Counted from the stretch's first letter, positions 5,530 through 61,430 are shown. The stretch: 64,000 nt of DNA from Nitrospirota bacterium (GCA_021814615.1 JAKAHZ010000001.1:31178-95177), one strand, 5' to 3'. Numbers and translations are program-made. The notes: generated by a model from the sequence alone, not told the origin.

Positions 5530-5702
5530 GCGAAAATCCAGGCATGTGACCGAGTCCGAGTGTTAAACATTTCGGATGTCCGAAGCCCGCAGGGCAAGTT
5601 TCCGAAATGTCCCGAGGACGACCGAACATGCCGTGAAGGATTTTCGCGGGGTGCCGTTCTTTGGCGCCACCTTTCTTCGGGCAAGCAAGAAAGGTGGCTG
5701 GA
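5530..5702. repeat. Copy 1 of ~150-170 bp structured intergenic repeat family (MITE/REP-like)
   Basis: Near-identical to 23197-23375 and 30348-30520 (reverse orientation) and partial 34085-34135; internal stems 'catttcgga...tccgaaatg' and 'gccacctttctt...aagaaaggtggc'. Confidence 0.7.
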
Positions 5703-5871
5703 GTTTTTCTCAGGCTAGCTAATACAGCATAATGTGGTTATAGAGAGATACGCACAGAAAGTCAAAAAAGCCCCTTTATTTCTACCACGAACAATTCACC
5801 CTGCGAAACCACACCAGAATGAGTCTTGCCGGAGCGCTGCAAATAACGCACCCCTTGGAGTATAATGTCCC

Positions 5872-7305: not shown

Positions 7306-8376
7306 TCACCGGTCCACAAAACACTGCGGGTCGTCGCTCAGAAAATCGCCTGATCCGCGCGCCAGCGCATCGGCATACGCGATCGCCCTGCAGCCCCTGC
7401 ATTCCTCCCAGTGGCCGCAGGAACCGCATTTCCCCGAATATCTGCTTTTGTCGCGCAGTGCCTCGAGCACCGGCGAGGCCGCCCAGAGTTCGCGCAGCGA
7501 ATGGGTCCGCACATTCCCGATCGGCAGGGGCATGCGGCGGCAGGGAACGACCGTTCCGTCGGCAAGCAGCGTGAGACCCGAAACGCCGGCCGAACATCCT
7601 CCCGAGGGAACCCCGCCCGTCCGGTCGCGTTTGCGCCTGCCGGGATGCTTCATCGACCGTTCCCGCCGGTGCGCGGCTGCAACGGGGTCTCCGGTCACAA
7701 TCTCCAGCCCCGGGATGTCGGTGGCGAACAATTCTTCGTACAAGCTCCTGACCTCCGCGGCGGACAGCATCGCCTGTCCCAGGCCCGCCGCTTTTCCCGC
7801 GGGAACAAGCCGGGAGAATCCCAGGCGCTGGGCGCCGATGTGGGAGGCGAAGCGCACGACCTTCTTCATGCTCTTCGCGTTCAGCCGGGACAATGTAACG
7901 TTCAGGGTCACGGGCACACCCGCGTCGAGCAGATGTTCGATGCCGTCCGACGCCCGTTCGAAACTGCCCGGCCCGCGCACCGATTCATGGATCTCCTCGC
8001 ACCCCTCGATGCTCACCTGCGCGCCTTTCACGCCCAGCTCGGCGATCCGGCGGGCGCGTGTGCGGTCGATGAGCGTTCCGTTCGTCAGGAGAAAGGTCTC
8101 GTAGCTCCGCGCATGCAGCAGGCCCAGCACCTGCTCCAGATCCGGCCGCAGGAGCGGTTCGCCGCCGGTGATGTTGAAGCTCGGCTTGATCGAAACGTCA
8201 TAGGCGCGCCGCCAGGCCCCGAACATCTCGTCGATCTCTTCCAAGGTCTCGTTGATTTCCTCAAGGGAAAGCTCGCTTCCCGGCGTGCCGGTCTGATAGC
8301 AATGCGAGCAGGCAAGGTTGCATCGTTCCGTCAGATGCCACTGGATCAGGAAATCATGGGTTTCGGTCACGGACAT
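7306..8376 (-). CDS. Radical SAM enzyme with C-terminal SPASM domain (peptide/protein-modifying maturase family)
   Basis: Radical SAM 'CNLACSHC' (Cx3Cx2C) near N-terminus; SPASM Cys cluster 'GGCSAG...PC...CGSCGHWEECRGC'; likely start MSVTE with GAGGA RBS (alt ATG at 8415). Confidence 0.75.
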   Translation of the reverse strand: MSVTETHDFLIQWHLTERCNLACSHCYQTGTPGSELSLEEINETLEEIDEMFGAWRRAYDVSIKPSFNITGGEPLLRPDLEQVLGLLHARSYETFLLTNGTLIDRTRARRIAELGVKGAQVSIEGCEEIHESVRGPGSFERASDGIEHLLDAGVPVTLNVTLSRLNAKSMKKVVRFASHIGAQRLGFSRLVPAGKAAGLGQAMLSAAEVRSLYEELFATDIPGLEIVTGDPVAAAHRRERSMKHPGRRKRDRTGGVPSGGCSAGVSGLTLLADGTVVPCRRMPLPIGNVRTHSLRELWAASPVLEALRDKSRYSGKCGSCGHWEECRGCRAIAYADALARGSGDFLSDDPQCFVDR

Positions 8377-8476
8377 GTATCTGTTCCTCGTGTGGGCCAT
8401 CGGAAACGCGTGCATGGCTGTCCGCGTCTTACCGGGAAGATATCCTCCGCTGAGAGACTGCGGAATGTTGATGGAC

Positions 8477-8578
8477 TAAACCTATCACGGAGACAGGGAG
8501 ACCCAGAGAAAAGCAATTTGCATATATGATGATTTATTCAGTGTCCTCAGTGTCTCCGTGGTGATAATCGACTTTTCG
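8477..8578. repeat. ~95-nt hairpin element (copy 1 of 2); inverted repeat cacggagacag.../...ctcagtgtctccgtg
   Basis: Near-identical copy at 59603-59705; long imperfect stem flanking an ~60-nt AT-richer loop containing 'gcaatttgcatatatgatgat'. Confidence 0.7.
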
Positions 8579-8685
8579 ACTTCACCCAGGTTGGACGGAA
8601 AAGAAGAGCAGGGTCCCGCGTTTCCGGCCCCTGCTCCTGATGGTGTTGCCGACCGGCAACAAGAGCGTCAGCTCTTTCAACCCTT

Positions 8686-8784
8686 TCATTTCCTGCAGGC
8701 AGACCCTGCGGGCGCGGCTTTCTTGAGGTTTTCCCAGAGCGCCGCCTCCTTGGCAAGGTCCTTCAGGCTCATCGCCTTCTTCAT
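8686..8784 (-). CDS. Candidate 32-aa peptide MKKAMSLKDLAKEAALWENLKKAAPAGSACRK (possible radical-SAM substrate precursor)
   Basis: Unlisted small ORF found by reading the - strand; strong SD GGAGGTGA 6-7 nt upstream of ATG; same strand and upstream of the rSAM/SPASM gene; not in the >=60 aa ORF track. Confidence 0.35.
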   Translation of the reverse strand: MKKAMSLKDLAKEAALWENLKKAAPAGSACRK

Positions 8785-20063: not shown

Positions 20064-20256
20064 ATCATTGGACACGGGTTTGCGCGGATCAGATCTGATG
20101 AAAGCTTCGATCTATTACTGATCTATCCGCTTTTATCAAAGCCTTATCCGCCTTGATCCGTGTCAAAAGTCTTTCGTCAATTCCTTTGAGCTCGGATTTA
20201 CACCGATAATATCTGGTGAAAGCCATAACGTCCAAGTGGGTGAAAGGAGCCTGACC

Positions 20257-20823: not shown

Positions 20824-20878
20824 CACCGGGGTGGCGCGTTGCCGCCCCTCGCGAGGTAGGGCCCGTCGGGTTTCAGTT

Positions 20879-21244
20879 CTACTGGCTGCCTGTCTTGAGC
20901 TTGATGACTTCCTTGGTCTTCAGATCCAAGGAATAATATTCATCCTTTTCGGTGGTGATAATAAGCTTCTCATTCTTTATCGTCAGATTCGTTATAAAAA
21001 CATCTTGAACGTCCTTCTCGAGCAACGGATTGATCCGCGCCTCATAGATCCTCTTTTCCCATAGTTTCTTTCCTGTAGTATTATCGAAGGCAACAACGTG
21101 CCCCATCTGCGACACAGGCGCCTCGTACCGTACGCCGCTATACACAACAGGATCAACATCTCGCGGCGCAGCACGTTTTGCCGAAGCGGGAAGAGCCGCA
21201 ATAAGAACGATGAGGATTGAAACTTTAAGTATTCTTGCGCTCAT
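20879..21244 (-). CDS. Small secreted hypothetical protein (low-GC insert)
   Basis: Signal peptide 'ILIVLIAALPASA'; local GC ~42% versus ~65% surroundings. Confidence 0.45.
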   Translation of the reverse strand: MSARILKVSILIVLIAALPASAKRAAPRDVDPVVYSGVRYEAPVSQMGHVVAFDNTTGKKLWEKRIYEARINPLLEKDVQDVFITNLTIKNEKLIITTEKDEYYSLDLKTKEVIKLKTGSQ

Positions 21245-21265
21245 GTTTTAGCATCCTGTCGGGTT

Positions 21266-21667
21266 TCACTTCGTTCTCCCCGACCTACGACCTGAGGTTA
21301 ATAGCGTTATTCTAGCTTTGCTCGAAACAATCCTTATCTTATTAGCGCAGGCTCTGTCATGGCCATAAAGTCTGAACGTATATTCATGAAATCGACGCCC
21401 GGAAACGATTACTTCTTTGTGTAGTATCCGATCAATTGAACCTGCCCAGAGATTGTCTTTGACCCCATTAAAATCGATCTGCTTGTTAACATTTTGCACA
21501 TTGTCAAATTCGGCTCTGACTTTTCTTCTCTTAGCACCCCAAACGAGACCGGGATATATTTCTGCTTCTATAGATATTTTTGTCTTATCTTTCTTCGTAA
21601 GTGGGTAAACATAGCTAACCCTAATGATATTACCATCGTGCCAATATGGCGTTGATATCAATTCCAT
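21266..21667 (-). CDS. Hypothetical protein (low-GC insert)
   Basis: ORF in AT-rich segment tandem with 20879-21244; start taken at MELISTPYW. Confidence 0.4.
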   Translation of the reverse strand: MELISTPYWHDGNIIRVSYVYPLTKKDKTKISIEAEIYPGLVWGAKRRKVRAEFDNVQNVNKQIDFNGVKDNLWAGSIDRILHKEVIVSGRRFHEYTFRLYGHDRACANKIRIVSSKARITLLTSGRRSGRTK

Positions 21668-21689
21668 GATCGCGAGCAGTCGCTCCCTT

Positions 21690-22751
21690 CTATTTTTTAC
21701 TTTCTTCCATCCTCTCCAGCAGCTTGAACTGCACCCGCGCCCGATGCAGGTTGTGGCCGGGGTAGCGGATGCGGAAATAGGTGTCCCCGCGGAGATAATC
21801 AGCAAGGAACCGGATGCCGAGCTCGAAGGTGATCACCTGGATGGAGAGCGGCAGCAGCTCGATCTCGCGCTTTGTCAGGAACGATCCGGCGGTTTCGAGA
21901 TATCCCGCTTTGATCGTTTCATACAATCCGGCGTCGAAGCGGACCGCGTCCAGATCCGGCGCATCCTCTCCTTCCGGATTGGCCGCCGACCGCACGCAGT
22001 CGCCGAAATCGAAATGCACGATCCCTGGCTTGACCGTGTCCAGGTCGACCATGCAGATCGCCTTGCCGGTTCCCTTGTGCACCATCACGTTGTTCACCTT
22101 GGGATCGTTGTGCACCACGCGCAGCGGGATTTCTCCGGTTGCGATGTGGTCGGTCAACGCTGTTGCCAGTGATCGGCGGCGGTAGACGAATTCGCGTTCC
22201 GCCATGATTTCGCGCGAACGGTTCTTCGGATCGGTTCGGAGCGCCTGGTCGAATTCGTCAAGATACCGGCCGGTGTAATGGAACCCGGGCAAGGTGTCGT
22301 GCAATTGGTCAGGATGGAGATCGGAAAGGAGTTCCTGGAAGGACCCCAGCGCCCGTCCGATCTCGAAGGCGTGTTGCTCTCCCTGCACCGTGTCGAAGAC
22401 CTCGCCGGATTCGATGAAATGGAACATGCGCCAGTAATCGCCCTTCCCGTCGACAAGATAGGTCTTGCCGTCCCTTGTCCGGAGCAAGGCAGGCGTTGTA
22501 TTCTCGGGATCGGGGATGCCCGCCCTGCGCAGCCGCTCCTGCACATGGGTGGTCACGGTCTCCACATTCGCCATCACCTGCTTGGGATGCAGGAACACGT
22601 GCTGATTGATCCGCTGGAGAATGTATTTCCTGACGCCGGCGTCGGACGCGATCTCGCAGAGATAGGTTTCGTTGATCAGGCCTGAGCCGAACCGCTCGGC
22701 GCGCTGGAGCGTGCCGGGAAGGGAGAAGTGCCTGATGATCCGCTCTTGCAT
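21690..22751 (-). CDS. Phosphotransferase (APH/choline-kinase fold; possibly sugar 1-kinase)
   Basis: Catalytic loop 'VVHNDPKVNNVM' (HxDxxxxN) and 'MVDLD' metal-binding motif. Confidence 0.6.
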   Translation of the reverse strand: MQERIIRHFSLPGTLQRAERFGSGLINETYLCEIASDAGVRKYILQRINQHVFLHPKQVMANVETVTTHVQERLRRAGIPDPENTTPALLRTRDGKTYLVDGKGDYWRMFHFIESGEVFDTVQGEQHAFEIGRALGSFQELLSDLHPDQLHDTLPGFHYTGRYLDEFDQALRTDPKNRSREIMAEREFVYRRRSLATALTDHIATGEIPLRVVHNDPKVNNVMVHKGTGKAICMVDLDTVKPGIVHFDFGDCVRSAANPEGEDAPDLDAVRFDAGLYETIKAGYLETAGSFLTKREIELLPLSIQVITFELGIRFLADYLRGDTYFRIRYPGHNLHRARVQFKLLERMEESKK

Positions 22752-23196
22752 GATGGGAGCATTGTACTGATTCGCGAGTGGATTAGCAAGGCGGGCGATG
22801 GGGCTTGAACCGCGAAGAAAATGAAGGAGCGGATCAACAGCCTCTTACCGCGAAGGCGCAAAGGACGCGAAGAACTGCAGGTCTTCCGCCGTTTTTTCCG
22901 GTTTTACTCGCGTTCATCCGTGTTCATCCGCGTCCTATTGCTTTCTTCTGACGTTTATTCCGGTTTTTATCCGTGTCCATCCGTGTGCGTCCGTGTCCAA
23001 ATGATTTTAGTTTTATCCGCTCTTATCCGCGTTCATCCGCGTCCAAACTAATGGGATCTGTGTTTCGGCTTTTGCGCTCTCTCTGTGCTCTCTGTGTCCT
23101 CTGTGGCAAATTCCGTAGTTGTTTGTTTTGATCCGCGTTCATCGGCGTCCCAAGCCGACTTTGAGTCCTCGCGTCTTCGTGGTAAAGGAGTTGGTT

Positions 23197-23375
23197 CCTC
23201 ACCTTTCTTGCGTGCCCAAGAAAGGTTGAGCCAAAGAAGGGCACCCGGCGATCATTCTGATCCGTCATGCTCGGTCGTCCTCAGGGCATTTCGGAAACTC
23301 GCCCTGCGGGCTTCGGACATCCGAAATGCTTTTCCTTCGGACTCTGTCGCCTGACGGGAATAATCGCATGGGAAC
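23197..23375. repeat. Copy 2 of ~150-170 bp structured intergenic repeat family
   Basis: Aligns with 30348-30520 and reverse complement of 5530-5702. Confidence 0.7.
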
Positions 23376-23593
23376 GGTAGTCAACGGCAAAGGCTCGTCG
23401 TTGGCTGGATTGATCCGCCGTTATCCGCATTCATCCGCGTCCAAAAATCTTCCTGTTTTTTCGTATCTCTGTTTTGTTTTCCCTCTGTGCTCTCTGTGTC
23501 CTCTGTGGCAAATTCCGTAGTTGTTTGTTTTGATCCGCGTTCATCCGCGGCCCAAGCCGACTTTGCGTCTTCGCGTCTTCGTGGCAACGTTCT

Positions 23594-29100: not shown

Positions 29101-29559
29101 AATCAGAGATGAGTAAGAGCAATAAAAGGCTTGTCTCGCGCAGAGCCGCGGAGACCGCAGAGAACGGCTAGAACCAGAGACGAGAGTCAAAAGATTCTGT
29201 TTAGCTACTATTTATCCGTGCCCTCCATGTTGATCCGTGTCCAATCTTTAATCCGAATTTATCCGCGTTCATCCGCGTCCCAATAGTACTTCTTCGAGTC
29301 TTAGCGTCTTCGCGGCAAAATCTTTTCCTCTCGCAGAGACGCAGAGGAGCAGCGAAAAGCTAAGGATTGGCTCTTGCAAAGACGCAAAGGCGCGAAGAAA
29401 AGCAGCGGCTAAATCCGGGACGACGATCTAAAGACCTCATCCGTGTTCATCTGTGTTGATCCGTGTCCGATCTCTAATCCGAATTTATCCGCGTTCATCC
29501 GCGTCCCACTGGCTCTTCTTCGCGTCTTTTGGTGTCTTTGTGGCAAAGGTTTTTGATTC

Positions 29560-30261: not shown

Positions 30262-30347
30262 GGGATCTCCTTATATTGGTCTTCCGACTTTCGCGTGGGG
30301 GAGTATCTTGAGATTGTTATGCTGTTACCAGTCCTCAGACGACCCTC

Positions 30348-30520
30348 CGGCCACCTTTCTTGCTTGCCCGAAGAAAGGTGGCGCCCAAGAAGAACACCCC
30401 GCGACTATTCTGTTCCGTCTTGCTCTGTCGTCCTCGGTACATTATAGAAACTCGCCCTGCGGGCCCAGACAGTCTGAAATGTTTCACCCGCGGACTCGGT
30501 CGCATGACGGGAATGTTCGC
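30348..30520. repeat. Copy 3 of ~150-170 bp structured intergenic repeat family
   Basis: Reverse-complement match to 5530-5702. Confidence 0.7.
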
Positions 30521-30672
30521 AGGGGGGGCAGGCAAAACCTTAATAACTGTTACTCAGCATGTTCCCGGAACGTTTTCTACGCGCCTTTGCGTCGCTGCGA
30601 CAAAACAAGCTTTGCTTGTCTAGCTGTTCTCCGCGCCCTCTGCGGCTCTGCGGGAACATGCCCTGGCATTGC

Positions 30673-33974: not shown

Positions 33975-34287
33975 GGTAAAATCACCTTTGCCGCGAGGGC
34001 ACGAAGACACAAAGGAACGGCAGACAACCAAGATGCTATGACCTCAAAAAACGCTGCGCTTGAACTCGCCTTCCCCATGCGGAAAGGATTTTCGCGGGGT
34101 GCCCTTCTTTGGGTCACCTCTTCGTGTCATTGCGACTCGTGATAAACAGCATTTATATGATGAACTCGTAAAAAGGCTTTCGCCACAGAGGTCACCGAGG
34201 ACACAGAGAAAAATATCTTGTTTTATGAAGCATTATCTCTGTGATCTCTGTGTGCTCTGTGGCAGATTTTGACTTTCTACGATTCTG

Positions 34288-42345: not shown

Positions 42346-43373
42346 CTGCCCCGTCTCCTTGCATAGCGCGATGTCGCGCCAAAATGATCGTACCCTGACG
42401 GACGGAGAACTGTTCTCTTGCCATCGATTCCGGAAAGGATTATTGTCCTTCTCCTGGTCAGGAACCCTATCGCCGTTGCATCGATTGGAAGCTTTTTAAC
42501 CCTTCTCCATTTCTCACGCGGAACAGTAAAAAGAAGCTCGTAATCCTCTCCTCCCGACAGGGCATATTCCAGCGGCGATCGTCGCAAAGTAGACACAGAA
42601 CATAAACTTCGTGAAAGCGGCACATTCTTGGCGAGAACAAGCGCGCCTACACCGCTTTCTTCGCAAATATGCTCCAAGTCGGAGGAGAGACCATCGCTTA
42701 CATCGATCATCGCCGACGCTATACCTGCAAGTGCGAGTTTCCGCCCTTCGTCAACTCGCGGCCTTGGCCGCAAATGTTTCTCGATCAGTTTTTTGAAAGT
42801 ACTCGTGCGATGCGCTACTTGTCCTTTAGCCTCTGCTTTCAAGAGCTCCAATCCGGCCGCAGAATCTCCTAATGTACCGGTCACGAAGATAATATCGCCC
42901 ATCTGAGCACCTGAACGTTTAAGTACTTGCCTTGCTGGAACCTCACCCAAAATAACTATGTTTACAATTAGATCCCGCAGAGAGCCACAGGTATCGCCAC
43001 CCACAAGCGACACTTTATGTCTCTTTAGCAGTGCATTAAGCCCTCGATAGAAAGCAGAGATGTTCTCGACAGTGACGTGACGTGGAATTGCCAATGTTGC
43101 CAAACAGAACCGCGGCGTGCCGCCCATGGCGGCGATGTCGCTCAGATTCACTGCAGCTGACTTCCACCCCAGCGATCGGAAGTCCGTCGTCCGTAGGTCA
43201 AAGTGTACACCTTCGAGCAACATATCCGTCGTGGCAAGCAGCTCTGCGCCGGGTGAACATCGCAACACCGCTGCGTCATCGCCGATACCGATCTGGACAC
43301 CTTTTCTTATGCGACCCGCTGTTTTCCTGATGCGTTTGATGAGACCGAACTCACCGATATCGGATATCTTCAT
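42342..43373 (-). CDS. thiL: Thiamine-monophosphate kinase
   Basis: 'GIGDDAAVL', AIR-synthase-related fold motifs; 4-bp overlap with downstream gene. Confidence 0.75.
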   Translation of the reverse strand: MKISDIGEFGLIKRIRKTAGRIRKGVQIGIGDDAAVLRCSPGAELLATTDMLLEGVHFDLRTTDFRSLGWKSAAVNLSDIAAMGGTPRFCLATLAIPRHVTVENISAFYRGLNALLKRHKVSLVGGDTCGSLRDLIVNIVILGEVPARQVLKRSGAQMGDIIFVTGTLGDSAAGLELLKAEAKGQVAHRTSTFKKLIEKHLRPRPRVDEGRKLALAGIASAMIDVSDGLSSDLEHICEESGVGALVLAKNVPLSRSLCSVSTLRRSPLEYALSGGEDYELLFTVPREKWRRVKKLPIDATAIGFLTRRRTIILSGIDGKRTVLRPSGYDHFGATSRYARRRGR

Positions 43374-43514
43374 AGTATCGTCGCGACCGCAAAGACACAA
43401 AGGCACTAAGCGTTCGAAGTATTCCTTCGTGTCTTAGTGCCTTGGCGGCCGGTCTTAATTGTGCAGCTTTCTTACTCCTGTCTACTGACTTCTGTCTCCT
43501 GTGTTCTGTGCTTC

Positions 43515-45929
43515 TTAATGCGTCGCCCGCGACCGGCCGGGTTTCCTGGTCTTGCGCACCACGTTCCCGGCCCTCTTTTTCCCGAAAGCCGTCCCGAGCA
43601 CGTCGTCCATGGTCTCGGCAAAGACGAAGTGCATGCCTTTCTTGATCTCCTTCGGGATCTCCTCCAGGTCCTTCTCGTTCTGCTTCGGCACAATGACGGT
43701 GGTGATGCCTGCGCGCCGGGCGGCCAGGGTCTTCTCCTTCAGGCCGCCGATGGGCAACACCCGGCCGCGAAGCGTCACTTCGCCGGTCATGGCCAAGTCC
43801 TTGCGCACCGGCGCTTTCGTGAAGACCGACGCCAGAGCCGTGGCCATGGTCACGCCGGCAGATGGTCCGTCCTTGGGGATGGCGCCCGCCGGCACATGGA
43901 TATGCACATCGGTCTTGGCGAACTGCTCCGTGTTGATGCCCAGGGAGGAGGCGCGTGACCGGATGTAGGTCAACGCCGCGTGGGCCGACTCCTTCATCAC
44001 GTCGCCCAACTGGCCGGTCAAGGTCAGCGTGCCCTTGCCCTTCATGGTCGTGGCCTCGATGTACAGCACGTCGCCGCCCGTTTCCGTCCAGGCAAGCCCG
44101 GTGACCACGCCCACTTCGTCCTTCTTCCGCTCCTCCTCGGGCAGGAACTTGGGCGCGCCCAGGTAGGTATGCACGTTGGCGGTGGTGATCGTGAAGAGGC
44201 CCGTTTCTCCCTCGGCGATCTTGCGCGCAACCTTGCGGCAGAGGTGCCCGATCTCGCGCTCCAGGTTCCGGACGCCTGCCTCGCGCGTATACTCCCCGAT
44301 GATCTTGAGGAGCGTCTTGTCCGGGATGGCGATCTGCTTTTCCGTGATGCCGTGCTCCTTCAGCTGGCGCGGCACCAGGTAGTGCGTGGCGATGCCCAGC
44401 TTCTCGTGCTCCGCATACCCCGACAGCCGGAGGATCTCCATGCGGTCCTTGAGCGGCCCGGGAATCGGATCGGTCATGTTCGCCGTGGTGATGAACATGA
44501 CGTTCGACAGGTCGAAGGGCAGCCCGATGTAGTGGTCGCTGAAGGAATTGTTCTGCTCCGGGTCCAGCACCTCCAGAAGCGCCGCCGACGGGTCGCCGCG
44601 GAAATCCGCGCCGATCTTGTCGATCTCGTCGAGCATGAACACGGGGTTGTTCGAGCCGGCGCTTTTGATGCCCTGGATGATCCTGCCGGGGAGCGCGCCC
44701 ACGTAGGTCCTGCGGTGGCCGCGGATCTCCGCTTCGTCGCGCACGCCGCCCAGGGAGATGCGCACGAACTCGCGGCCCAGGCTGCGCGCGATGGACTTGC
44801 CGAGCGAGGTCTTGCCCACGCCCGGAGGGCCGACGAAACAGAGGATCGGGCCCTTCATCTTATCTTTGAGCTTGCGGACCGCAAGGTACTCGAGAATGCG
44901 CTCCTTCACCTTTTCCAGGTCGTAGTGGTCTTCTTCGAGGATCTTCTGCGCCGCTTTCAGGTCCAGGTTGTCCTTCGTCGCTTTGCTCCAGGGCAGCTCG
45001 GACAGCCATTCGATGTAGGTGCGCGTCATCGACGCCTCGGCGGCGTCGGGATGCATCCGCTCCAGCCGGCGCAGCTGCTTTTCCGCCTCTTTGTCGGCCT
45101 TGTCGGGCATCTTGGCGGCCTTGATCTTGTCCTTGAGCTCGCGCATTTCCTCGCCGCGGTCGTCGGTCTCGCCCAGCTCGCGCTGAATGGCCTTAAGCTG
45201 TTCGCGCAGGAAGTACTCGCGCTGCGTCTTGTCGATCTCGCCCCGCACGTCCTGCTGGATCTTCTGCTGCATGGACAGAAGCTCGATCTCCTTGCCCAGA
45301 AGCTCGTTGATCCGCTTGATGCGGCTGATGGGGTCGGTGATCTCGAGCACTTCCTGCGCCTGCTCGACCTTCAGGCCCATGTTGGCCACGGCCAGGTCGG
45401 CCAGTTTGCCCGGATCGTCCACGTTCTCGATCACGACCATGATGTCCGGCAGGATCACCTTGCCGAAGGAGACAAGCTTCTCGATCTGCTCCTTCACGTT
45501 CCGCATGAGCGCTTCGAGCTCCAGCGTTACGGCGATCGGCGCGTCGGGATGGGTCTTGATCTCGACGAGATAGTACGGTTCCTTCTGGAGGAACTTGACG
45601 GTCTTGGCCCGCGACACGCCCTGGACCAGGATCTTGATCCTGCCGTCGGGGAGCTTCAGCATGCGCATGATCACGCCGACGGTGCCCATGGAATAGAGGT
45701 CCGACGGCGCCGGGTTCTCGACGCTGATGTCCTTCTGGGAGGACAGGAAAATCATGCGGTTCCCTTCCAGGGCGACCTCGATCGCCTTGATCGACATGTC
45801 CCTGCCCACGAAAAGGGGAAGGACCATGCTCGGGAACACGACGATGTCGCGGATGGGAAGCAGCGGGATCTTCTTCGGGATCTCGATGGTCTGCTCGACC
45901 TCGGCGGTTTTGACCTCTGATTTTGCCAC
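43515..45929 (-). CDS. lon: ATP-dependent Lon protease
   Basis: LON N-domain, Walker A 'GPPGVGKTS', protease Ser '[15 protein letters not shown]'; GTG start with AAAGGAG RBS. Confidence 0.95.
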
Positions 45930-46153
45930 TCAGGACTCCTTTTGCCGCTCTCGGCGCGGCCGGGGATCATACAGGGAGAACGAACTGCTCGATAATAGAC
46001 TCGCAAAAAAAATCTATTTAGCCACAGAGGTCACAGAGAACTCAGAGAAACAATTTCAATCTCTAAAGATCTACCTCTGTGCTCTCTGTGCGCTCTGTGG
46101 CAGCTCTTGACGTATTACGATTTTCATCAATCGATGAAACCACTCCACTGCCG

Positions 46154-48597: not shown

Positions 48598-48658
48598 GAA
48601 CTCTCCGTCAACTAAGACTGGTTCTTTGTACTCGGTACGTTGTACTCAGTACTGTTCT

Positions 48659-49417
48659 TCATTCCGCCGTAATCGGCCCCACCGCGCTGCCGGTGATGAA
48701 CTGCTTCACAATCGGGTTCGTCGTATTCTTTATATCGTCGGGCGTCCCCGTCTCGAGGATCTCGCCCTTGTACAGCATGGCGATCCGGTCCGAGATCTTG
48801 TAGGCGCTGTGCATGTCGTGGGTGATGGCAACGGACGTGACGCCCAGTTTCTTCCGGAGATCGACGATCAGATCGTTGATCGCGTCGGCCGTGATCGGGT
48901 CCAGGCCCGTGGTGGGCTCGTCGTAGAGGATAATCTCCGCATCCATGGCGATGGCCCGCGCCAGGCCCACGCGCTTCCGCATGCCGCCCGACAGGTCCAC
49001 GGGCATCTTGTCCTCAACGTTCTTCAGGCCCACGAGCGCCAGTTTCTCGGTCGCGATCTTCCGTATCTCCCGGTCCGACAGCTTCGTATGCTGCTTCAGT
49101 CCGAAGCCCACATTCTCCCAGACCGGGAGCGAATCGAAGAGCGCGGCCATCTGGAAGAGCATGCCGAACTTCTTCCGCACCTCGTTCAACTGCTGGGCGT
49201 CCAGGTTGTTCAGCACCTGGCCGGCGACCTTCACCTGGCCCCGGTCGGGAAAGAGCAGCCCGATGATGTGCTTGATCAGCACGCTCTTGCCGCTGCCGCT
49301 ACCGCCGATCACGGTCACGCTCTCGCCCTTGCTGACCGCGAGATTCACGCCGCGCAGCACCTGCAGGCTCCCGAAGCTCTTGAAGAGGTCCGTTATCTCG
49401 ATCATCGTCTCGGGCAT
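48659..49417 (-). CDS. mlaF: ABC transporter ATP-binding protein MlaF
   Basis: Walker A 'GGSGSGKS', ABC signature 'LSGGMRKRV', Walker B 'ILYDEPT'. Confidence 0.85.
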   Translation of the reverse strand: MPETMIEITDLFKSFGSLQVLRGVNLAVSKGESVTVIGGSGSGKSVLIKHIIGLLFPDRGQVKVAGQVLNNLDAQQLNEVRKKFGMLFQMAALFDSLPVWENVGFGLKQHTKLSDREIRKIATEKLALVGLKNVEDKMPVDLSGGMRKRVGLARAIAMDAEIILYDEPTTGLDPITADAINDLIVDLRKKLGVTSVAITHDMHSAYKISDRIAMLYKGEILETGTPDDIKNTTNPIVKQFITGSAVGPITAE

Positions 49418-50194: not shown

Positions 50195-50264
50195 AGATCA
50201 GTACTGAGTACAAAGTACAGAGTACAGAGTGTAATCAAAATCATATCTCCTAGTCCGGGTTTTT

Positions 50265-50327
50265 GGTACTTGGTACTTGGTACTTGGTACTTGGTACTTG
50301 GTACTTGGTACTTGGTACTTGGTACTT
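50265..50327. repeat. Perfect heptanucleotide microsatellite (GGTACTT)x9
   Basis: Nine uninterrupted 7-mers directly upstream of mla operon and overlapping alr stop codon. Confidence 0.95.
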
Positions 50328-51498
50328 AATTTACGATCCTCGGCACCCTCGCCGAGATGGCGCAGAGCACTTCGTAGGGGATCGTGCCGGTTGTTTCGGC
50401 GATGTCCTGCGCGGTGATGCGTTCCGCGCCCTGGCTCCCGATCAGCACGACGTCGTCGCCTGCTGAAACGCCCGGCACGTCCGTCACATCGAGCATGGTC
50501 ATGTCCATGCAGACCCTGCCGGCAACAGAAACGCGCCTGCCCCGTACCAGGGCACGGCCTGTGTTCGAGAGCAGCCGGTTGAACCCGTCGGCATAACCGA
50601 TGGGGATCGTGGCGATCAGGCTCTCCCGCCTCGTTACGAAGGTCCTGCCGTAGCTGATCGGCACCCCCGCCGGTACGCGTTTCACATGCGCGATCCGTGT
50701 TGCCAGCGAAAGCACGGGCCGGAGCTCGGCTGCGCTTCCGCCTTCCAGGGGATTATACCCGTACAACATAAGGCCGGGCCGCACCATGGTCAGGTGCGCC
50801 CGGTCGTAATCGAGCACTGCCGCGCTGTTGGCCGCGTGCCGAAGCGGCACGGCGATCCCCCGGCGTTCGAGGGCGGCGATCAGGGACGAGAACCGCTCGA
50901 GTTGCCGTCCGGCGAACTCCTTGTCCCGGAGATCGGCATCGGCAAAATGGGTCATCAGCCCTTCGACGGCGATGCCGGGGAGATTCGCAAGCCCGCTTAT
51001 GAACTCCACCGCTTCCTCGGGAACGAGCCCGATCCTGCCCATGCCCGTATCGATTTTTACATGGACCGCGATCTTCTTGCCCGCGTCCTGGGCTGCTTCG
51101 GATAACGCCCGCGCAACGGGCAGGGAGAAGACCACAGGCGTCAGGCCCGTGTCCACAACCGCGGGCGCCTGCTCCGGGAAGATCGGCCCCATGATCAGCA
51201 CCGGCGCGGGTATGCCGCTCGCGCGGAGCTCACGCCCTTCCTCCACGAGCGCAACGCCAAGCATCGGAACACCCAGTTCCACCAACCGCTTCGCCACGGG
51301 AACGGCGCCGTGGCCGTAGGCCTGCGCCTTTACCACCGCCAGCACCTTCCTGCCTCCGATACGCGAAACGACCTGACCGAGGTTGTGAGCCAGGGCGGTC
51401 AGGTCGATCCTCGCGGCCGTGGGCCGGCCGGCCGGCGATGAGGAAGCGCCGGCTGGGGACGAACAGGCGTCCGTTCCCTCAGTGGATGGTGCTCTCAT
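50326..51498 (-). CDS. alr: Alanine racemase
   Basis: PLP Lys 'VLAVVKAQAYGHGA' and C-terminal Alr motifs; N-terminal low-complexity extension so start uncertain. Confidence 0.85.
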   Translation of the reverse strand: MRAPSTEGTDACSSPAGASSSPAGRPTAARIDLTALAHNLGQVVSRIGGRKVLAVVKAQAYGHGAVPVAKRLVELGVPMLGVALVEEGRELRASGIPAPVLIMGPIFPEQAPAVVDTGLTPVVFSLPVARALSEAAQDAGKKIAVHVKIDTGMGRIGLVPEEAVEFISGLANLPGIAVEGLMTHFADADLRDKEFAGRQLERFSSLIAALERRGIAVPLRHAANSAAVLDYDRAHLTMVRPGLMLYGYNPLEGGSAAELRPVLSLATRIAHVKRVPAGVPISYGRTFVTRRESLIATIPIGYADGFNRLLSNTGRALVRGRRVSVAGRVCMDMTMLDVTDVPGVSAGDDVVLIGSQGAERITAQDIAETTGTIPYEVLCAISARVPRIVN

Positions 51499-54022: not shown

Positions 54023-54226
54023 GAAAGGCCTTGCTCACCACGAAGAACACGACGGAATGAGATATTCCTCGCTTGCGGGATTTTCTTCGTGCCCTTCGCG
54101 TCCTTCGTGGTTCAAAGATCGTAATTCCGGCGATATTATGTTTTATCCAAGATGTGCTTCGTGCGCTTCGTGTCCTTCGTGGTTAATGGTTTTGCTTCAG
54201 TCCGAGATATTACTTAGGATGACCAC

Positions 54227-54982: not shown

Positions 54983-54987
54983 GATTG

Positions 54988-55036
54988 GCTGTCATTGCGA
55001 GGAGCGTAAGCGACGAAGCAATCTCGTAGTTGATTA
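54988..55036. repeat. Left inverted repeat of GIY-YIG mini-element
   Basis: 'ggctgtcattgcgag...gcgacgaagcaatctcgtagttgatt' is the reverse complement of 55320-55360; third direct copy at 55401-55452. Confidence 0.75.
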
Positions 55037-55323
55037 TGGAAAGACACTATTACGTTTACATCATGACGAATCCGACGCGAACTGTTCTGTACACGGGTGT
55101 GACAAATGATCTTCAGAAACGCGTTTTCCAGCATAAAGAAAAAACGGTCCCGGGATTTACCGAAAGATATAATCTCAACAAACTTGTTTTCTTTGAAACA
55201 ACTCCGGACGTGAAAAGCGCCATCCTACGCGAGAAGCAAATCAAAGGCGGTTCCCGAGCGAAGAAGATCGCACTCGTCGAGGCGATGAATCCCAAGTGGA
55301 ACGACCTCTACGAAACACTCTAA
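55036..55323 (+). CDS. GIY-YIG nuclease family protein (small stand-alone type)
   Basis: 'YYVYIMTN...VLYTGVTNDLQKRVFQH' GIY-YIG motif with catalytic Arg/Glu context. Confidence 0.8.
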   Translation: MERHYYVYIMTNPTRTVLYTGVTNDLQKRVFQHKEKTVPGFTERYNLNKLVFFETTPDVKSAILREKQIKGGSRAKKIALVEAMNPKWNDLYETL

Positions 55324-55360
55324 CTACGAGATTGCTTCGCTTCGCTCGCAATGACAGCCT
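55320..55360. repeat. Right inverted repeat of GIY-YIG mini-element
   Basis: Reverse complement of 54988-55036. Confidence 0.75.
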
Positions 55361-55466
55361 TTTGTTCACGCCGAATCGCCTGATTTGTCATCTTTTATTT
55401 GTCATTGCGAGGAGTGTTCTTTGCGACGAAGCAATCTCGTAGTTGATTTTCGATTCTGACTTTTGA

Positions 55467-56642
55467 ATGACCATGCCTCTCGCCTACTTCGACATATTCT
55501 CCGGCATCTCCGGCGACATGACCCTGGGAGCCCTGGTGGACGCGGGCGTTCCCTTCGACCATCTGCGCTCGGAGCTGGAAAAGCTCGGGCTCTCCGGCTA
55601 CCGCATCACGGCCGAGAAGGTCCGCCGCTCCGGGCTTGCCGCGACCAAGGTGAATGTGCAGTTGGACGACCAAAAGCAGCCGGCCCGCAGGCTCGGCGAC
55701 ATCCGCAAGATCATCGACTCTTCCGGCCTTGCTTCTGCAGTCAAGGAGAAGAGCCTCCGCATCTTCCAGCGCCTCGCTGAAGTGGAGGCGAAGGTGCATG
55801 GTTCCACGATCGAGGCTGTCCATTTCCACGAGATCGGCGCCGTGGACGCCATGATCGATATCGTCGGATCCGTGATCGGCATGGAGCGCCTCGGCATCAC
55901 CGAGATCGTCGCGTCGCCGTTAAACGTGGGCTCGGGCAGCGTCAAGACCGCACACGGCATCCTGCCGGTGCCCGCTCCCGCCACCGCCGAACTCCTGAAG
56001 GGCATCCCCTTCTATTCCTCGTCCACGAATTTCGAATTGACCACGCCCACGGGCGCGGCGATCATCAGCACCCTGGCAACGTCCTTCGGCCAACTGCCGC
56101 AGATGCGGACCGACACGATCGCCTACGGCGCGGGAGACTCGGATTTTCCCGGCCATCCGAACGTGCTCCGCCTGTTCATCGGCGAGCATGCGGCCACCTA
56201 TGAAGAGGACAGGTCGGTCCTGATCGAAACGAACATCGACGACATGAATCCCCAGATCTACGACCACGTGATCAGCAGGCTGCTCGCCGCCGGAGCGCAT
56301 GACGCCTATCTCAGCCCGGTGATCATGAAAAAAGGCCGGCCCGGCATCCTCCTGTCGGTGCTCACGGACACCAGGAAAGAGGACGCGCTTCTGGACATCC
56401 TCTTCCGGGAAACCACCAGCATCGGCGTGCGCATCAGCGAGGTGGGCAGGAAAAAGCTCTCGCGCGAGATCACGACCGTGGAAACGCCCTATGGTCCGGT
56501 CCGGGTCAAGATCAGCAGGAAAGGCAGCGAGGTCCTGACCATAACACCGGAGTACGAGGACTGCAAAAAGATCGCAGAGGAGAAACAGATACCACTCAAG
56601 CAAGTCATCGACAACGTAAAGCGCATTGCCAATGGCATTTAA
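55467..56642 (+). CDS. larC: Nickel insertion protein LarC (DUF111)
   Basis: 'YFDIFSGISGDMTLGALVDAG' canonical LarC N-terminus and full DUF111 length. Confidence 0.8.
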   Translation: MTMPLAYFDIFSGISGDMTLGALVDAGVPFDHLRSELEKLGLSGYRITAEKVRRSGLAATKVNVQLDDQKQPARRLGDIRKIIDSSGLASAVKEKSLRIFQRLAEVEAKVHGSTIEAVHFHEIGAVDAMIDIVGSVIGMERLGITEIVASPLNVGSGSVKTAHGILPVPAPATAELLKGIPFYSSSTNFELTTPTGAAIISTLATSFGQLPQMRTDTIAYGAGDSDFPGHPNVLRLFIGEHAATYEEDRSVLIETNIDDMNPQIYDHVISRLLAAGAHDAYLSPVIMKKGRPGILLSVLTDTRKEDALLDILFRETTSIGVRISEVGRKKLSREITTVETPYGPVRVKISRKGSEVLTITPEYEDCKKIAEEKQIPLKQVIDNVKRIANGI

Positions 56643-56737
56643 CTCTGGGCTCTCTGCGGCTCTGCGAGAGACAGGAATTGTCTTTTCTTTTCATCTTTGC
56701 GAGAAACCGCTTTGTACCTTGGTCATATATTGAGAGA

Positions 56738-58726: not shown

Positions 58727-59578
58727 TTGGCGGTAATGGGTTATTCTCCTATGACTCCCGGTACTCTCTACATCGTCTCCACGCCCATCGGCAACCTCGA
58801 GGACATCACCCTCCGGGCGCTGCGGATATTGAAGGAAGCGGACGTGATCGCTGCCGAGGACACGCGCCACACCCAGAAGCTCCTGTCCAAATACGACATC
58901 CATACGCCGCTCACGAGCTACCACGATCACAACAAGGAAGAAAAAGGGCCGGTCCTCGTCAGCCGCCTGCTCGAAGGCAAGAACGTTGCGCTCGTGTCCG
59001 ATGCCGGCACGCCCGGCATCTCGGACCCCGGCTACTTCCTGATCAATCTCGCCGTGGATCAGCAGATTCCCGTGGTCCCCATCCCCGGTGCCACAGCAGC
59101 AATTGCCGCGCTCTCCGTCTCCGGCCTGCCAACGGACAGCTTCGTGTTCGAAGGATTCCTGCCGGGCAAGCATCAGGCCAGGCTGAAGCGGCTGGAGCTG
59201 CTCAAACCGGAAACACGCACGCTGGTCCTGTACGAGGCGCCGCACCGGATCCACCAGGCGCTTGAGGACATGCTCTCGGTCCTGGGTGACCGGAAAGCGG
59301 TTGTCATGCGCGAACTGACCAAGATCCATGAACAGGCGCTCCGCGGAACGCTTTCTTCCATCAGGGAACAGCTCCGGACCGGTTCGGATAAAGGCGAGTT
59401 CACCCTCGTGGTGCATGGCAAAACCGACGAGCCGGCACAGCAGGATATCGACATCGCGGAACACTTGAAGAACCTGATGCTCCACCGGGGAATGACCAAG
59501 AAAGAGGCCATTGCAGCTGCAACCGAGGAGCTGGGGCTGCCGAAGAAGGAGATATACAAGGAAAGTTTAAAGCTATAA
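58727..59578 (+). CDS. rsmI: 16S rRNA (cytidine1402-2'-O)-methyltransferase
   Basis: 'LYIVSTPIGNLEDIT', 'AAEDTRHT', 'SDAGTPGISDPG' match RsmI; start 58727 or 58751. Confidence 0.85.
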   Translation: MAVMGYSPMTPGTLYIVSTPIGNLEDITLRALRILKEADVIAAEDTRHTQKLLSKYDIHTPLTSYHDHNKEEKGPVLVSRLLEGKNVALVSDAGTPGISDPGYFLINLAVDQQIPVVPIPGATAAIAALSVSGLPTDSFVFEGFLPGKHQARLKRLELLKPETRTLVLYEAPHRIHQALEDMLSVLGDRKAVVMRELTKIHEQALRGTLSSIREQLRTGSDKGEFTLVVHGKTDEPAQQDIDIAEHLKNLMLHRGMTKKEAIAAATEELGLPKKEIYKESLKL

Positions 59579-59602
59579 ACGTGATGGACTCGTAAGAATT
59601 CA

Positions 59603-59705
59603 AAACCTACTACTGAGACACGGAGACACAGAGAAAAGCAATTTGCATACATGATGATGTTTCAGTGTCCTCAGTGTCTCCGTGGTGATAATCGACTTTT
59701 TTACG
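59603..59705. repeat. ~95-nt hairpin element (copy 2 of 2)
   Basis: Matches 8477-8578; inverted repeat 'cacggagacacagag...ctcagtgtctccgtg'. Confidence 0.7.
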
Positions 59706-59814
59706 ATATCATCAACATTCAGCGATCTTTTTTCTGTCCGAATACACCCAAACAGGGTACTATTCCTGTTGCCGCATACTGATGCAGCATTTCTTTTCAT
59801 GAATGGAGACGAAT

Positions 59815-60303
59815 ATGTCGGGACACATCAAATCGAGCATGGGCGTTGAGCTGAAGGTCAAGGACGTGATGACCAAGGGTGTCATCACGATCACGAAATT
59901 CGAGAGCATCGTCACGGTCGCGGACATCCTGCAGGAAAGGAACATCAGCGGCCTGCCGGTGGTGGACAAGGACAACAAGGTCGTGGGGATCATCACCCAG
60001 GCGGACATCCTGTCCATGGTGGGCGTGGGCAGGGATCATACGTTCAAGGACCTGCTCAAGTACATGCTCGGCGAACCGCTGCCGGGCAAGAAGCTGGGCG
60101 ATACGGTCGGCGACATCATGACCACGCCGGCGGTGACGATCAAGGCGGATGCGAACATCGCCGAAGCGATCCAGCTCATGGACGACAAGAAGATCCGGCG
60201 GCTGACCGTGGTGGACGACAAACAGAAGCTCCTGGGCATCATTACCCGCGCCGACATCCTGAAGGCAGTGCTGAACAAGGTCAAGGAACTCCGCAAAGGA
60301 TAG
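59815..60303 (+). CDS. CBS-domain pair protein
   Basis: Two CBS motifs ('VMTKGVITI', 'GLPVVDKDNKVVGIIT'; 'IMTTPAVTI','RLTVVDDKQKLLGIIT'); RBS GGAG. Confidence 0.75.
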   Translation: MSGHIKSSMGVELKVKDVMTKGVITITKFESIVTVADILQERNISGLPVVDKDNKVVGIITQADILSMVGVGRDHTFKDLLKYMLGEPLPGKKLGDTVGDIMTTPAVTIKADANIAEAIQLMDDKKIRRLTVVDDKQKLLGIITRADILKAVLNKVKELRKG

Positions 60304-60305
60304 CG

Positions 60306-61430
60306 ATGGCAACGGTCTATTTCTCCTCAGCCCGCACGCTCAGGTGGAACTACCTGCACAGCGTCCCGGGCAAGCTGGAAGCGCTCCTGGAGAAGCTGGA
60401 TCTCGCGAAGCGCTTCGCCAAGGACGACTGGGTCGCGGTCAAGACCCATTGGGGGTCCCCCGGCGCCTTCCGCATCATTCCCGCCGCCATGCTCCGGAAG
60501 GTCGTTGACGCCGTGGGAAAAACCGGAGCCAAGCCCTTCGTGACCGACACGGTCAGGATCAAGGGCCTGGACTATCTCGAAGTGGCGAACCAAAACGGCC
60601 TGAATCACCTTTCCTGCGGCGCACCCCTCGTGCTTGCCGACGGACTCTACGGCAAGGACAGCATTCTCGTCAAGGCAGGTCCGCTGCTGGGCGCCATCGC
60701 CGTGGCTTCGGTGATCCACGACGCTCCGGCCATGATCGTCTGTTCGCACACCAAGGGCCACATCAATTCCGGCTATGCCGGCGCGATCAAGAACCTGGCG
60801 ATGGGCTGCGTGAGCGGACGCCACCGCGACCACGGCTGGCAGAAGGGCCGCGGCTCCATGCATTGCCACGGAGAGAAGGGCCTGCAGTGGGACCCCGAGG
60901 TCTGCACCTTCTGCGGCCAGTGCGCGGAGATCTGCCCGCTCGATTCCATCGAATTCAAGGACGGCAGGTTCGCCTACGACGCGGACACTTGCTGGCACTG
61001 CGGCAGGTGCAGCAGGGTCTGCCAGGAGGGCGCGCTCACCCTGCCCCAGGACGACGAGACCTTCATGAAAACCATGGCTGAATCCGCGGCAGCGGTGCTC
61101 TCCACCTTCCGGCCCGGCAAGGTTGTCTATGTCAATTTCCTCTTCCAGATCCAGCCGGAATGCGACTGCATGCCCGTGGCAGACGTGCCGGTGATCCAGG
61201 ACCAGGGCATCATGGTCTCCGACGACCTCGTGGCTATCGAGCAGGCGTCGGTCGACATGCTGCGAAAGGCATCTCCCCTCCCCCAGTCCGCCGCAGCGGA
61301 CGCAAAAGTCCCACCCGGAAATGATATACTCTCCTCATTGAATCCCCGGCCCCTGCAGCTCCAGATCGACGCGTGCGAGCGGCTGGGCCTGGGCTCGAAG
61401 CAGTACGAGCTGATTACCATAGAACCATAA
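60306..61430 (+). CDS. DUF362-domain protein with inserted 2x[4Fe-4S] ferredoxin domain
   Basis: 'CTFCGQCAEICP' and 'CWHCGRCSRVCQ' ferredoxin motifs inside DUF362 scaffold. Confidence 0.6.
   Translation: MATVYFSSARTLRWNYLHSVPGKLEALLEKLDLAKRFAKDDWVAVKTHWGSPGAFRIIPAAMLRKVVDAVGKTGAKPFVTDTVRIKGLDYLEVANQNGLNHLSCGAPLVLADGLYGKDSILVKAGPLLGAIAVASVIHDAPAMIVCSHTKGHINSGYAGAIKNLAMGCVSGRHRDHGWQKGRGSMHCHGEKGLQWDPEVCTFCGQCAEICPLDSIEFKDGRFAYDADTCWHCGRCSRVCQEGALTLPQDDETFMKTMAESAAAVLSTFRPGKVVYVNFLFQIQPECDCMPVADVPVIQDQGIMVSDDLVAIEQASVDMLRKASPLPQSAAADAKVPPGNDILSSLNPRPLQLQIDACERLGLGSKQYELITIEP

Follow-up and report, generated by a model that had tools for sequence, protein, structure and literature searches.

Two copies of an intergenic hairpin in a Nitrospirota genome are probable gene-less relatives of GxxExxY cassettes

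Two copies of an intergenic hairpin, here called A and B, are found in the window, by which we mean the whole 64,000-nt stretch of Nitrospirota DNA that was analysed. Sequence comparisons make it probable that both copies are gene-less (non-autonomous, MITE-like) members of a palindromic superfamily, the full-length members of which are cassettes with a GxxExxY gene. Each arm of such an element consists of three tandem 7-mers of the form C[A/G]C-N-N-A-[G/T], each with a spacer of 1-3 nt, inverted around a variable core, and the full-length members hold exactly one small gene in that core, namely GxxExxY (TIGR04256 / PF13366, predicted PD-(D/E)XK nuclease fold). Copying at the DNA level probably brought the gene-less unit itself to another site in this lineage, and effects on the neighbouring genes, for example through a hairpin in a polycistronic mRNA, would be a by-product. 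The main rival possibilities are a REP-like effect on mRNA, by-product or not, and a role of the hairpin as a landing pad for the cassettes. By themselves, the two copies represent a dispersed repeat of an ordinary kind, and their weight lies in what they lead to.

The Two Copies and Their Build

An earlier note on this DNA had described two hairpins, more than 85% identical, that share a long inverted repeat (cacggagaca/tgtctccgtg) around a common AT-richer core. The description holds in all these respects, with the homology beginning slightly further left than had been noted. In a global alignment of positions 8478-8576 with 59603-59700, 91 of 99 positions are identical (92%) with a single 1-nt indel, and the aligned stretch is bounded by AAACCTA and GACTTTT in both copies. 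To the left, the homology extends into TGATGGACT at 8469-8477 and 59582-59590, and to the right it ends with GACTTTT at 8576 and 59700. The left arm has five substitutions and the core two substitutions in addition to the indel; the right-hand 41 nt, comprising the right arm and TAATCGACTTTT, are without any change. Both the core 22-mer AGCAATTTGCATAYATGATGAT and the right-arm 25-mer occur exactly twice in the window, with none expected from 100 dinucleotide shuffles (all other shuffle controls were mononucleotide).

The arms are built from three tandem units of 8-9 nt, CACNGAG on the left and CTCNGTG on the right, with outer ends ..CAC/GTGGTGA, and the two inverted arms of a copy are separated by an AT-rich core of 26-27 nt (Table 1). 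Read as its reverse complement, the left arm of copy B is CTCTGTG-TCTCCGTG-TCTCAGTA. The inverted repeat is present in both copies and yet pairs in different registers, a consequence of the three tandem units in each arm. Owing to the imperfect arms, the element escaped both ungapped and gapped hairpin searches at strict thresholds, and a unit-based pattern was used instead. The predicted folding of the copies is only moderately above that of shuffled sequences (z = -1.6 to -2.8).

Since copies A and B share both the core and the outer flanks, the gene-less unit itself was probably duplicated, as opposed to two cassettes having decayed independently. Whether only these two copies exist, on which the earlier note had made its idea depend, became a moot point: two copies are known with this exact core, and members of the family to which the arms belong number dozens in the window and hundreds in metagenomes. 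An exact 20-mer spanning the right arm and outer flank had no matches in species-representative genomes or JGI metagenomes, two collections that do not include the source organism. The starts of two contigs (L003 and L004) inside a right arm were considered as a sign of further copies and set aside, being explained by the 41-nt stretch shared by A and B alone.

Table 1. Positions of the two copies, their parts and related arms in the window.
Feature	Position	Strand	Basis
Copy A, whole homologous unit, 108 nt	8469..8576	+	alignment
Copy A, left arm, three purine-rich units TCACGGAG/ACAGGGAG/ACCCAGAG(A), partly degenerate	8485..8509	+	
Copy A, AT-rich core, mini-palindrome GCAATTTGC + ATGATGA	8510..8536	+	
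Copy A, right arm TTCAGTG-TC-CTCAGTG-T-CTCCGTG-GTGA	8537..8564	+	
Copy B, whole unit, 119 nt, with 12-nt insert at 59591-59602	59582..59700	+	
Copy B, left arm CTACTGAG/ACACGGAG/ACACAGAG(A)	59610..59634	+	
Copy B, core	59635..59660	+	
Copy B, right arm, same sequence as in copy A	59661..59688	+	
Superfamily hairpin, CACAGAG/CTCTGTG units, 20-nt core	34182..34263	.	
Superfamily hairpin, CACAGAG/CTCTGTG units, 27-nt core	46021..46101	.	
Superfamily hairpin, CGCAAAG/CACTAAG versus CTTAGTG/CTTGGCG, 14-nt core	43384..43451	.	
One CACGAAG left arm, CTTCGTG right arms at 54085-54109 and 54157-54181	54037..54184	.	
Solo right arm CTCTGGG/CTCTGCG/CTCTGCGAGAGA, directly 3' of larC	56640..56684	+	
Solo right arm a short way 3' of the rSAM gene, three CTTCGTG units followed by GTAA	7265..7292	+	

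Arms and Hairpins Elsewhere

With a pattern of three units [CA]T[CT]NG[CT]G and spacers of 0-3 nt, devised after the data had been inspected, 36 three-unit arm arrays were identified in the 64-kb window, 33 of them intergenic, compared with 0-2 in each of ten shuffles. Short tandem arrays with periods of 7-10 crowd the intergenic DNA of the window, and no fewer than eight further hairpins are built like the two copies, consisting of a purine-rich arm, an AT-rich core of 14-30 nt and a pyrimidine-rich arm with outer ends CCAC...GTGG. Their units come in other flavours, which include CACAGAG, CACGAAG, CGCAAAG and a decamer version, CACGGATNNN. Solo arms are also present in the window. Nearly all members are intergenic, in many cases within 15-25 nt of a stop or start codon and with co-directional genes on either side.

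In a set of 80 related loci, arm arrays are confined to a clade with 73-88% identity in the DUF362 marker protein, and within this clade their density is patchy, ranging from 0 to 6.6 per 10 kb; the more distant Thermodesulfovibrionia among these loci have no arm arrays. The arm 17-mer CAGTGTCTCCGTGGTGA is very common in metagenomes, where at least 95 matches fall within a three-unit array, the context among the matches listed being TTCTCCGTG-N-CTCAGTG-T-CTCCGTGGTGAA. A partner arm, TTCACCAC(N)GAG..., lies within 200 nt in 46 of the 104 distinct instances among the matches listed. In this set, which was ascertained on a single arm, the cores of the paired arms are 6-159 nt long and unrelated in sequence, and about half of the arms are solo. 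In this genome, a large part of the spacer DNA is taken up by such repeats, which are also frequent in metagenomes from soil, sediment and freshwater.

Two segments of the window, 22849-23587 and 29137-29542, are dense nests of arms with several flavours (ATCCGCG decamers, CTCTGTG, CTTCGCG and CGCAGAG), which suggests that elements were inserted into or beside one another. Inside the first nest, a 116-nt segment is duplicated at a distance of 402 nt (23070-23185 and 23472-23587).

GxxExxY Genes Inside Arm Pairs

The spacing of inverted arm pairs is bimodal: in 39 pairs the arms are 0-140 nt apart, and in 9-11 pairs the distance is 391-429 nt. The pairs that are about 390-430 nt apart enclose one ORF of about 124 aa, which codes for a GxxExxY protein (TIGR04256, E = 8e-46; PF13366 PDDEXK_3, E = 4e-44). 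In 2.16 Mb of Nitrospirota and metagenome DNA, all ten of the ten GxxExxY genes are preceded by a purine-rich arm and followed by a pyrimidine-rich one, and the gene is always read from the former toward the latter. The innermost unit (..AAGGAA or ..GGAGAG) is placed 8-15 nt before the ATG, at the position of a ribosome-binding site. In locus L095, the right arm that follows a GxxExxY gene is identical to the right arm of the window copies at 25 of 28 positions.

The clade of the GxxExxY protein tracks the flavour of the arms. Clade I (protein identity 67-80%, or 62-69% for L014, the CGCAGAG member) has CGCAAAG / CGCAGAG arms, clade II (91%) has CGC[GT]AAT arms and clade III (63-88%) has C[AG]CNGAG arms. 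The CACNGAG flavour of the window copies is the one that accompanies clade III. Loci with a GxxExxY gene also hold more other arm arrays (one-sided p = 0.006, for loci that are not phylogenetically independent). The gene itself is absent from the window and the 7 kb beyond it, in total 71 kb of this genome.

Most of the GxxExxY genes sampled from other phyla have flanking arms of this type as well, among them those in contigs of Sedimentisphaerales, Acidobacteria and Ca. Tritonobacter. In Bacteroides finegoldii, the arms TTCACCACAGAGG...CTCTGTGGTGAA enclose a gene located between radA and the next gene, and in Bernardetia an arm-flanked gene is located between ade and the next gene. The Sphingomonas gene, between fabD and fabG, has a left arm only, and the Gemmatirosa gene has a gene-less hairpin directly downstream. 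Two distant GxxExxY genes are exceptions, one in Treponema with single-unit inverted repeats and one in Prevotella with direct repeats. Furthermore, annotated members of the family bear N- or C-terminal extensions (HHRDTESTE, TEGTEDTE, LCLCASVV and SPRLCGE) that are translated arms. The phyla and classes in which arms and GxxExxY genes occur together are Nitrospirota, Planctomycetota, Acidobacteriota, Bacteroidota, Gemmatimonadota, Alphaproteobacteria and Ca. Tritonobacter.

GxxExxY proteins from different phyla are 80-90% identical, and the family comprises 24,353 clusters at 50% identity (E <= 1e-3). In an alignment of 28 clade III homologues, all of them close relatives (76-90% identical to the query), the PD..ExK residues D68, E78 and K80 do not vary. 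Sequence and profile searches of the PDB identified no relatives of the protein, and an AlphaFold model built from a shallow alignment has a mean pLDDT of 55, which is too low for the model to be of use. We tentatively suggest that the predicted GxxExxY nuclease acts on the arms and may drive their spread, in cis for the loaded copies and in trans for the gene-less ones. It is also conceivable, and we propose it with some reserve, that three-unit inverted arms with a GxxExxY gene represent an unrecognised pan-bacterial class of selfish cassettes. Inserted between operon genes, such cassettes would make use of the host's transcript and leave behind many gene-less hairpins and solo arms, and the window copies as well as the "IHF sites" of Geobacter, discussed below, could be their derivatives.

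Two observations concern the organisation of the cassettes. In an acidobacterial contig (L216, JADJXM010000007.1, positions 480-1181), a GxxExxY gene has two left and three right arms separated by the repeated spacer atccttcagatatgcccgg, as if the ends were tandemly duplicated. Family representatives P0361-P0376, of 263-295 aa, have two GxxExxY domains and may be fused tandem cassettes or read-through gene calls.

Decay at the larC/NAD Synthase Site

The site between the genes for larC and NAD synthase is occupied by an intact cassette in six of the related loci (L009, L010, L014, L021, L026 and L036), by a pseudogene in L012, by a solo right arm in the window and in L008, and by nothing in L015 and L019. 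In the window, LarC ends with ..RIANGI* and the solo right arm follows at once; the GxxExxY proteins of the relatives end with GITRIANGI/L*. The likeness of the two ends indicates that the larC gene of the window was fused to the tail of the cassette gene, probably by an in-frame deletion, and the solo arm would be the remnant of the GxxExxY cassette that the relatives carry there. The series shows that gene-less remnants do arise from loaded cassettes. Since seven of the loaded examples represent one orthologous locus, about seven independent loaded loci are available overall, in addition to the evidence from the protein extensions.

One could also imagine that the gene-less hairpin is not a derivative at all, and that it instead serves as an uninvaded landing pad, or homing site, for the GxxExxY cassettes. 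The nuclease would then cut the empty palindrome and repair would copy the gene in. Small PD-(D/E)XK homing endonucleases, such as I-Ssp6803I, exist, and the bimodal spacing of the arm pairs, with nothing in between, would fit such a scheme. So would the gene-less cores of one flavour, CGCAAAG, which share a conserved mini-palindrome of their own that is unlike the gene ends and does not look like a simple deletion scar. However, a landing pad leaves unexplained the multiplication of empty sites and the sharing of core and outer flanks by copies A and B, and the series at larC/NAD synthase runs from loaded cassettes to gene-less remnants. We consider this alternative distinctly unlikely. As for the origin of the gene-less members by loss of the gene, a possible likeness, as of a deletion scar, between the ..ATGATGA.. 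of the core and the start/stop junctions of loaded cassettes was set aside because of its shortness.

Insertion Sites and Their State in Relatives

Copy A is located between a gene for a 32-aa peptide (8686-8784, minus strand) and a radical SAM/SPASM gene (7306-8376, minus strand), more precisely between the terminator-like hairpin of the peptide gene (8605-8640) and the rSAM start at 8376. Copy B begins 3 nt past the stop codon of rsmI and is upstream of a CBS gene, both genes being on the plus strand. The contexts given in the earlier note are borne out by the gene coordinates. Relative to the transcription of the flanking genes, the element has opposite orientations at the two sites.

Relatives with 65-67% identity in the rSAM protein keep the pair of peptide and rSAM genes and have no element at the site of copy A; the intergenic region is 157-210 nt long in these relatives versus 309 nt in the window. 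At the site of copy B, rsmI abuts the DUF362 gene in relatives and the element is absent. The spacer is 20 nt in L008, L010, L012 and L019; the window has copy B and the CBS gene there (59578-60306); L026 and L036 have a clade II GxxExxY cassette; and L009, L013 and L017 have other genes. The rsmI/DUF362 junction is an insertion hot spot.

No target-site duplication was seen for copies A and B, and in 46 complete CACNGAG elements the lengths of flanking direct repeats equal those of the shuffled control. Symmetry is also seen in the flanks of the elements, with A enriched at -8 to -6 and T at +6 to +9; the palindrome therefore reaches beyond the arms. A near-identical sister strain carries the element, and neither an empty-site allele nor any other presence/absence polymorphism was found between near-identical strains. 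With neither a target-site duplication nor such a polymorphism, mobility is inferred from the comparison of relatives, as is the manner in which the copies spread.

Copy A separates the gene for a precursor peptide from that for its radical SAM maturase, and it may affect the ratio at which the two are expressed. The relatives keep the peptide gene, a conserved GTTGCCGGTCGGCAAC hairpin and a terminator-like stem. A conserved TGAAAGGGYTGAAAGAGCTGA box, followed by the GTTGCCGGTCGGCAAC hairpin and by the stem with TTTTCC, is present in the window (8590-8690, minus strand) and in two relatives (L086, 2290-2400; L088, 2344-2440). Positioned between a gene for a 32/33-aa peptide and an rSAM/SPASM gene, the box, hairpin and stem look like an attenuator that sets the ratio of precursor to maturase in a RiPP-like pair.

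RNA-Level or DNA-Level Constraint

Neither a search of the whole window against Rfam at the gathering score nor one around copy A at a relaxed E-value gave anything relevant. Scans for sigma-70 promoters and intrinsic terminators gave one match that partly overlaps the right end of copy B, a number no higher than expected from shuffles, and no T-tract signature of a terminator was found. ORFs that cross the element do not keep the same frame in copies A and B. The changes between the two copies are non-compensatory, with an altered left arm facing an identical right arm, and the core is unconserved in any relative.

Across the family, mismatches between the arms are distributed as 25 G·T, 23 A·C and 94 others, which corresponds to the random ratio of 1:1:4, and the wobble pairs have no bias toward the sense strand (13 sense versus 9 antisense). 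Position 4 of the unit mismatches in 39% of the cases and is free to do so; positions 2, 5 and 7 switch together. The arms of one element nevertheless co-vary: 81.9% of the cells are paired as compared to 65.1% in shuffles, a value reached in none of 500 shuffles, the covariation score is 0.484 versus 0.212, and the pairing falls to about 40% when the partners are slid against each other. On the whole, the data favour a palindrome at the level of DNA over a selected RNA structure, because of the random mismatch spectrum, the freedom at position 4, the solo arms and the lack of Rfam, promoter and terminator matches. Such a palindrome would be explained by units recognised sequence-specifically in both orientations or by copying from arm to arm.

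These results bear on the proposals of the earlier note, which had seen in the conserved repeat and loop a sign of function rather than chance and had named a small RNA, an attenuator and a miniature mobile element as candidates. The repeat is indeed more than a chance occurrence, and the third candidate is supported in substance, given two unrelated loci, absence in relatives and a dispersed family with gene-bearing members; the dedicated small RNA did not hold up. An independently transcribed regulatory RNA, or a dedicated attenuator or riboswitch, would agree with a hairpin and loop sequence that are conserved between the two copies. It is opposed by the missing Rfam, promoter and terminator signals, the opposite orientations relative to the flanking genes, the absence of the element at both loci in relatives with a core that none of them conserves, the non-compensatory changes between the copies and the lack of any G·U excess among the arm mismatches of the family, so that its probability seems to us close to negligible.

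A host-serving cis element of the REP/BIME type is another matter. The imperfect stem of about 25 bp could be an mRNA stabiliser, a site for RNase III or a partial barrier between cistrons, and the elements would then be kept for their effect on mRNA, which is compatible with a selfish origin. The positions of nearly all members between genes, often co-directional and near stop or start codons, are as such a function would have them, and a palindrome gives the same RNA shape either way round. A comparison of L010 with L012 at the NAD synthase/rsmI site gives arms conserved to about 85% around a core that is nearly unalignable; the covariation of the arms points in the same direction, as does the location of copy A right after the conserved attenuator-like hairpin between the precursor peptide and rSAM genes. 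Nonetheless, a selected stem is difficult to reconcile with the lack of G·U enrichment and sense-strand bias, with about half of the arms being solo and unable to form a hairpin, with the free mismatches at position 4 and the modest folding z-scores, and with the missing T-tract terminators and the patchy distribution among close relatives. We regard it as unlikely that the elements are kept for this purpose, and retain the descent from GxxExxY cassettes as the preferred explanation.

Comparison With Known Systems

The closest published counterpart is a set of intergenic, multicopy "class 2 predicted global regulator binding sites" in G. metallireducens (Aklujkar 2009, PMC2700814). As described there, these sites consist of three tandem repeats with the consensus TCTCCGTS[Y], are arranged as opposite-strand pairs at variable distance, are annotated as putative IHF sites and are not present in G. 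sulfurreducens; in Table S4 of that paper, the A and B sites of each pair are in one intergenic region. The arms in the window fit the consensus of three tandem repeats, a match that is to the published consensus and description and not base by base, and the window copies are likewise inverted intergenic pairs, with a spacing of 6-159 nt in the family. The Geobacter sites belong to another phylum and are presented in that description as sequence families only, without a link to a gene. Repeats from the supplementary data for G. bemidjiensis were considered as relatives and turned out to be different families. The literature searched contained no match to the arm sequences and no description of a link between the repeats and GxxExxY/PDDEXK_3, in a search that covered some of the papers that name GxxExxY. 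The repeat family is known already, in descriptive terms, from Geobacter, and the present comparisons show how widely it occurs and that it forms the envelope around GxxExxY genes.

Should the arms instead be binding sites for a nucleoid-associated protein (IHF/HU), as proposed for the class 2 sites, the shared consensus and paired arrangement would be expected; the core is AT-rich, and a DNA-binding protein could recognise three units at a spacing of 8-10 bp. The E. coli-type consensus WATCAANNNNTTR is, however, in neither copy; its single match in the window is at 20134, outside both, for a consensus that is that of E. coli only. Unrelated cores of 6 to 159 nt and at least six unit flavours in one genome also argue against a common ligand of this kind, and the original proposal for Geobacter was itself a hypothesis. 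We judge such a role to be very improbable.

Among other dispersed repeats, the REP/BIME/REPIN elements, which are reportedly associated with RAYT transposases, resemble the window family in being high-copy and extragenic, in occurring as singlets and inverted doublets that form a long hairpin, and in lacking target-site duplications. They are similar also in having a repeat-flanked single-copy gene thought to move the repeats and species-specific flavours. A REP singlet, however, is a short palindrome after GTAG (GT[A/G]G), whereas the arms in the window are three direct repeats, and no internal palindrome of the REP type was found in the arm units. The REP/REPIN-flanked gene is a RAYT, an IS200-like Y1 transposase, as opposed to the PD-(D/E)XK GxxExxY gene found here, in the relatives.

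Like the window element, the Correia MITEs of Neisseria are intergenic, measure about 100-150 nt and have an AT-rich centre between terminal inverted repeats of about 26 nt; they are co-transcribed into hairpin RNAs and are related to a longer element without having its gene. With MITEs in general, the window copies share the terminal inverted repeats, the small size and the absence of coding capacity. In contrast to MITEs, the window family has no duplication of TA or of another target, its arms are internally repetitive, and the longer relative with the same ends has a gene for a 124-aa protein with a predicted nuclease fold, which is not a known transposase, in place of the DDE transposase of a MITE parent.

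Homing endonuclease genes, free-standing or intron-borne and including that of the PD-(D/E)XK enzyme I-Ssp6803I, are small selfish inserts with a nuclease fold, as GxxExxY is predicted to be. The series of invasion, decay and loss at one locus and the near-identical proteins across phyla are further points of likeness, but homing endonuclease genes normally lack borders of long inverted repeats and high-copy gene-less derivatives. Finally, the intervening sequences of 23S rRNA, with an ORF for a four-helix bundle, also have a stem of inverted ends and a variable core with or without a small ORF, inside a host transcript; they differ from the window family in location, ORF family and stem sequences.

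Implications

The Geobacter repeats were noted in 2009 and left unexplained in that description (PMC2700814). The arm-flanked GxxExxY genes offer a testable hypothesis both for such repeats and for PF13366/TIGR04256, a large family listed as "function unknown," and this hypothesis is supported by the correspondence between protein clade and arm flavour and by the decay series at a single locus. If the cassettes are indeed selfish, a role would be given to a family of more than 24,000 clusters at 50% identity, and a common intergenic repeat would be explained. There are also practical consequences for annotation, since the arms yield spurious N- and C-terminal protein extensions (HRDTE.., LCLCASVV..), break short-read assemblies and could pass for regulatory RNAs or binding sites.

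Further Observations in the Window

A repeat of about 170 nt has full copies at 5537-5703 (reverse complement), 23200-23372 and 30345-30525 and a fragment at 34085-34126. It contains the internal hairpins CACCTTTCTTGC..AAGAAAGGTG and CATTTCGGAAAC..CCGAAATG and has no match in Rfam even at E <= 1. An ABC-transporter operon is flanked by heptamer arrays, (GGTACTT) x 9 and inverted AGTACAG/GTACTGA (48620-48662 and 50200-50334), which have the general build of the arms, with units of 7 nt and more copies.

A gene for a 97-aa GIY-YIG protein (55030-55323, region 54983-55467) is located within perfect inverted repeats of 18 nt and 15 nt (CGAAGCAATCTCGTAGTT and GGCTGTCATTGCGAG), and the left repeat has an extra copy 410 nt downstream. 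It is a further type of small nuclease gene enclosed by inverted repeats, in this case within the window. Lastly, the G+C content at third codon positions is low in two stretches, 20824-21690 and 42346-43515, as compared to the rest of the window, and these could be foreign or decaying genes.
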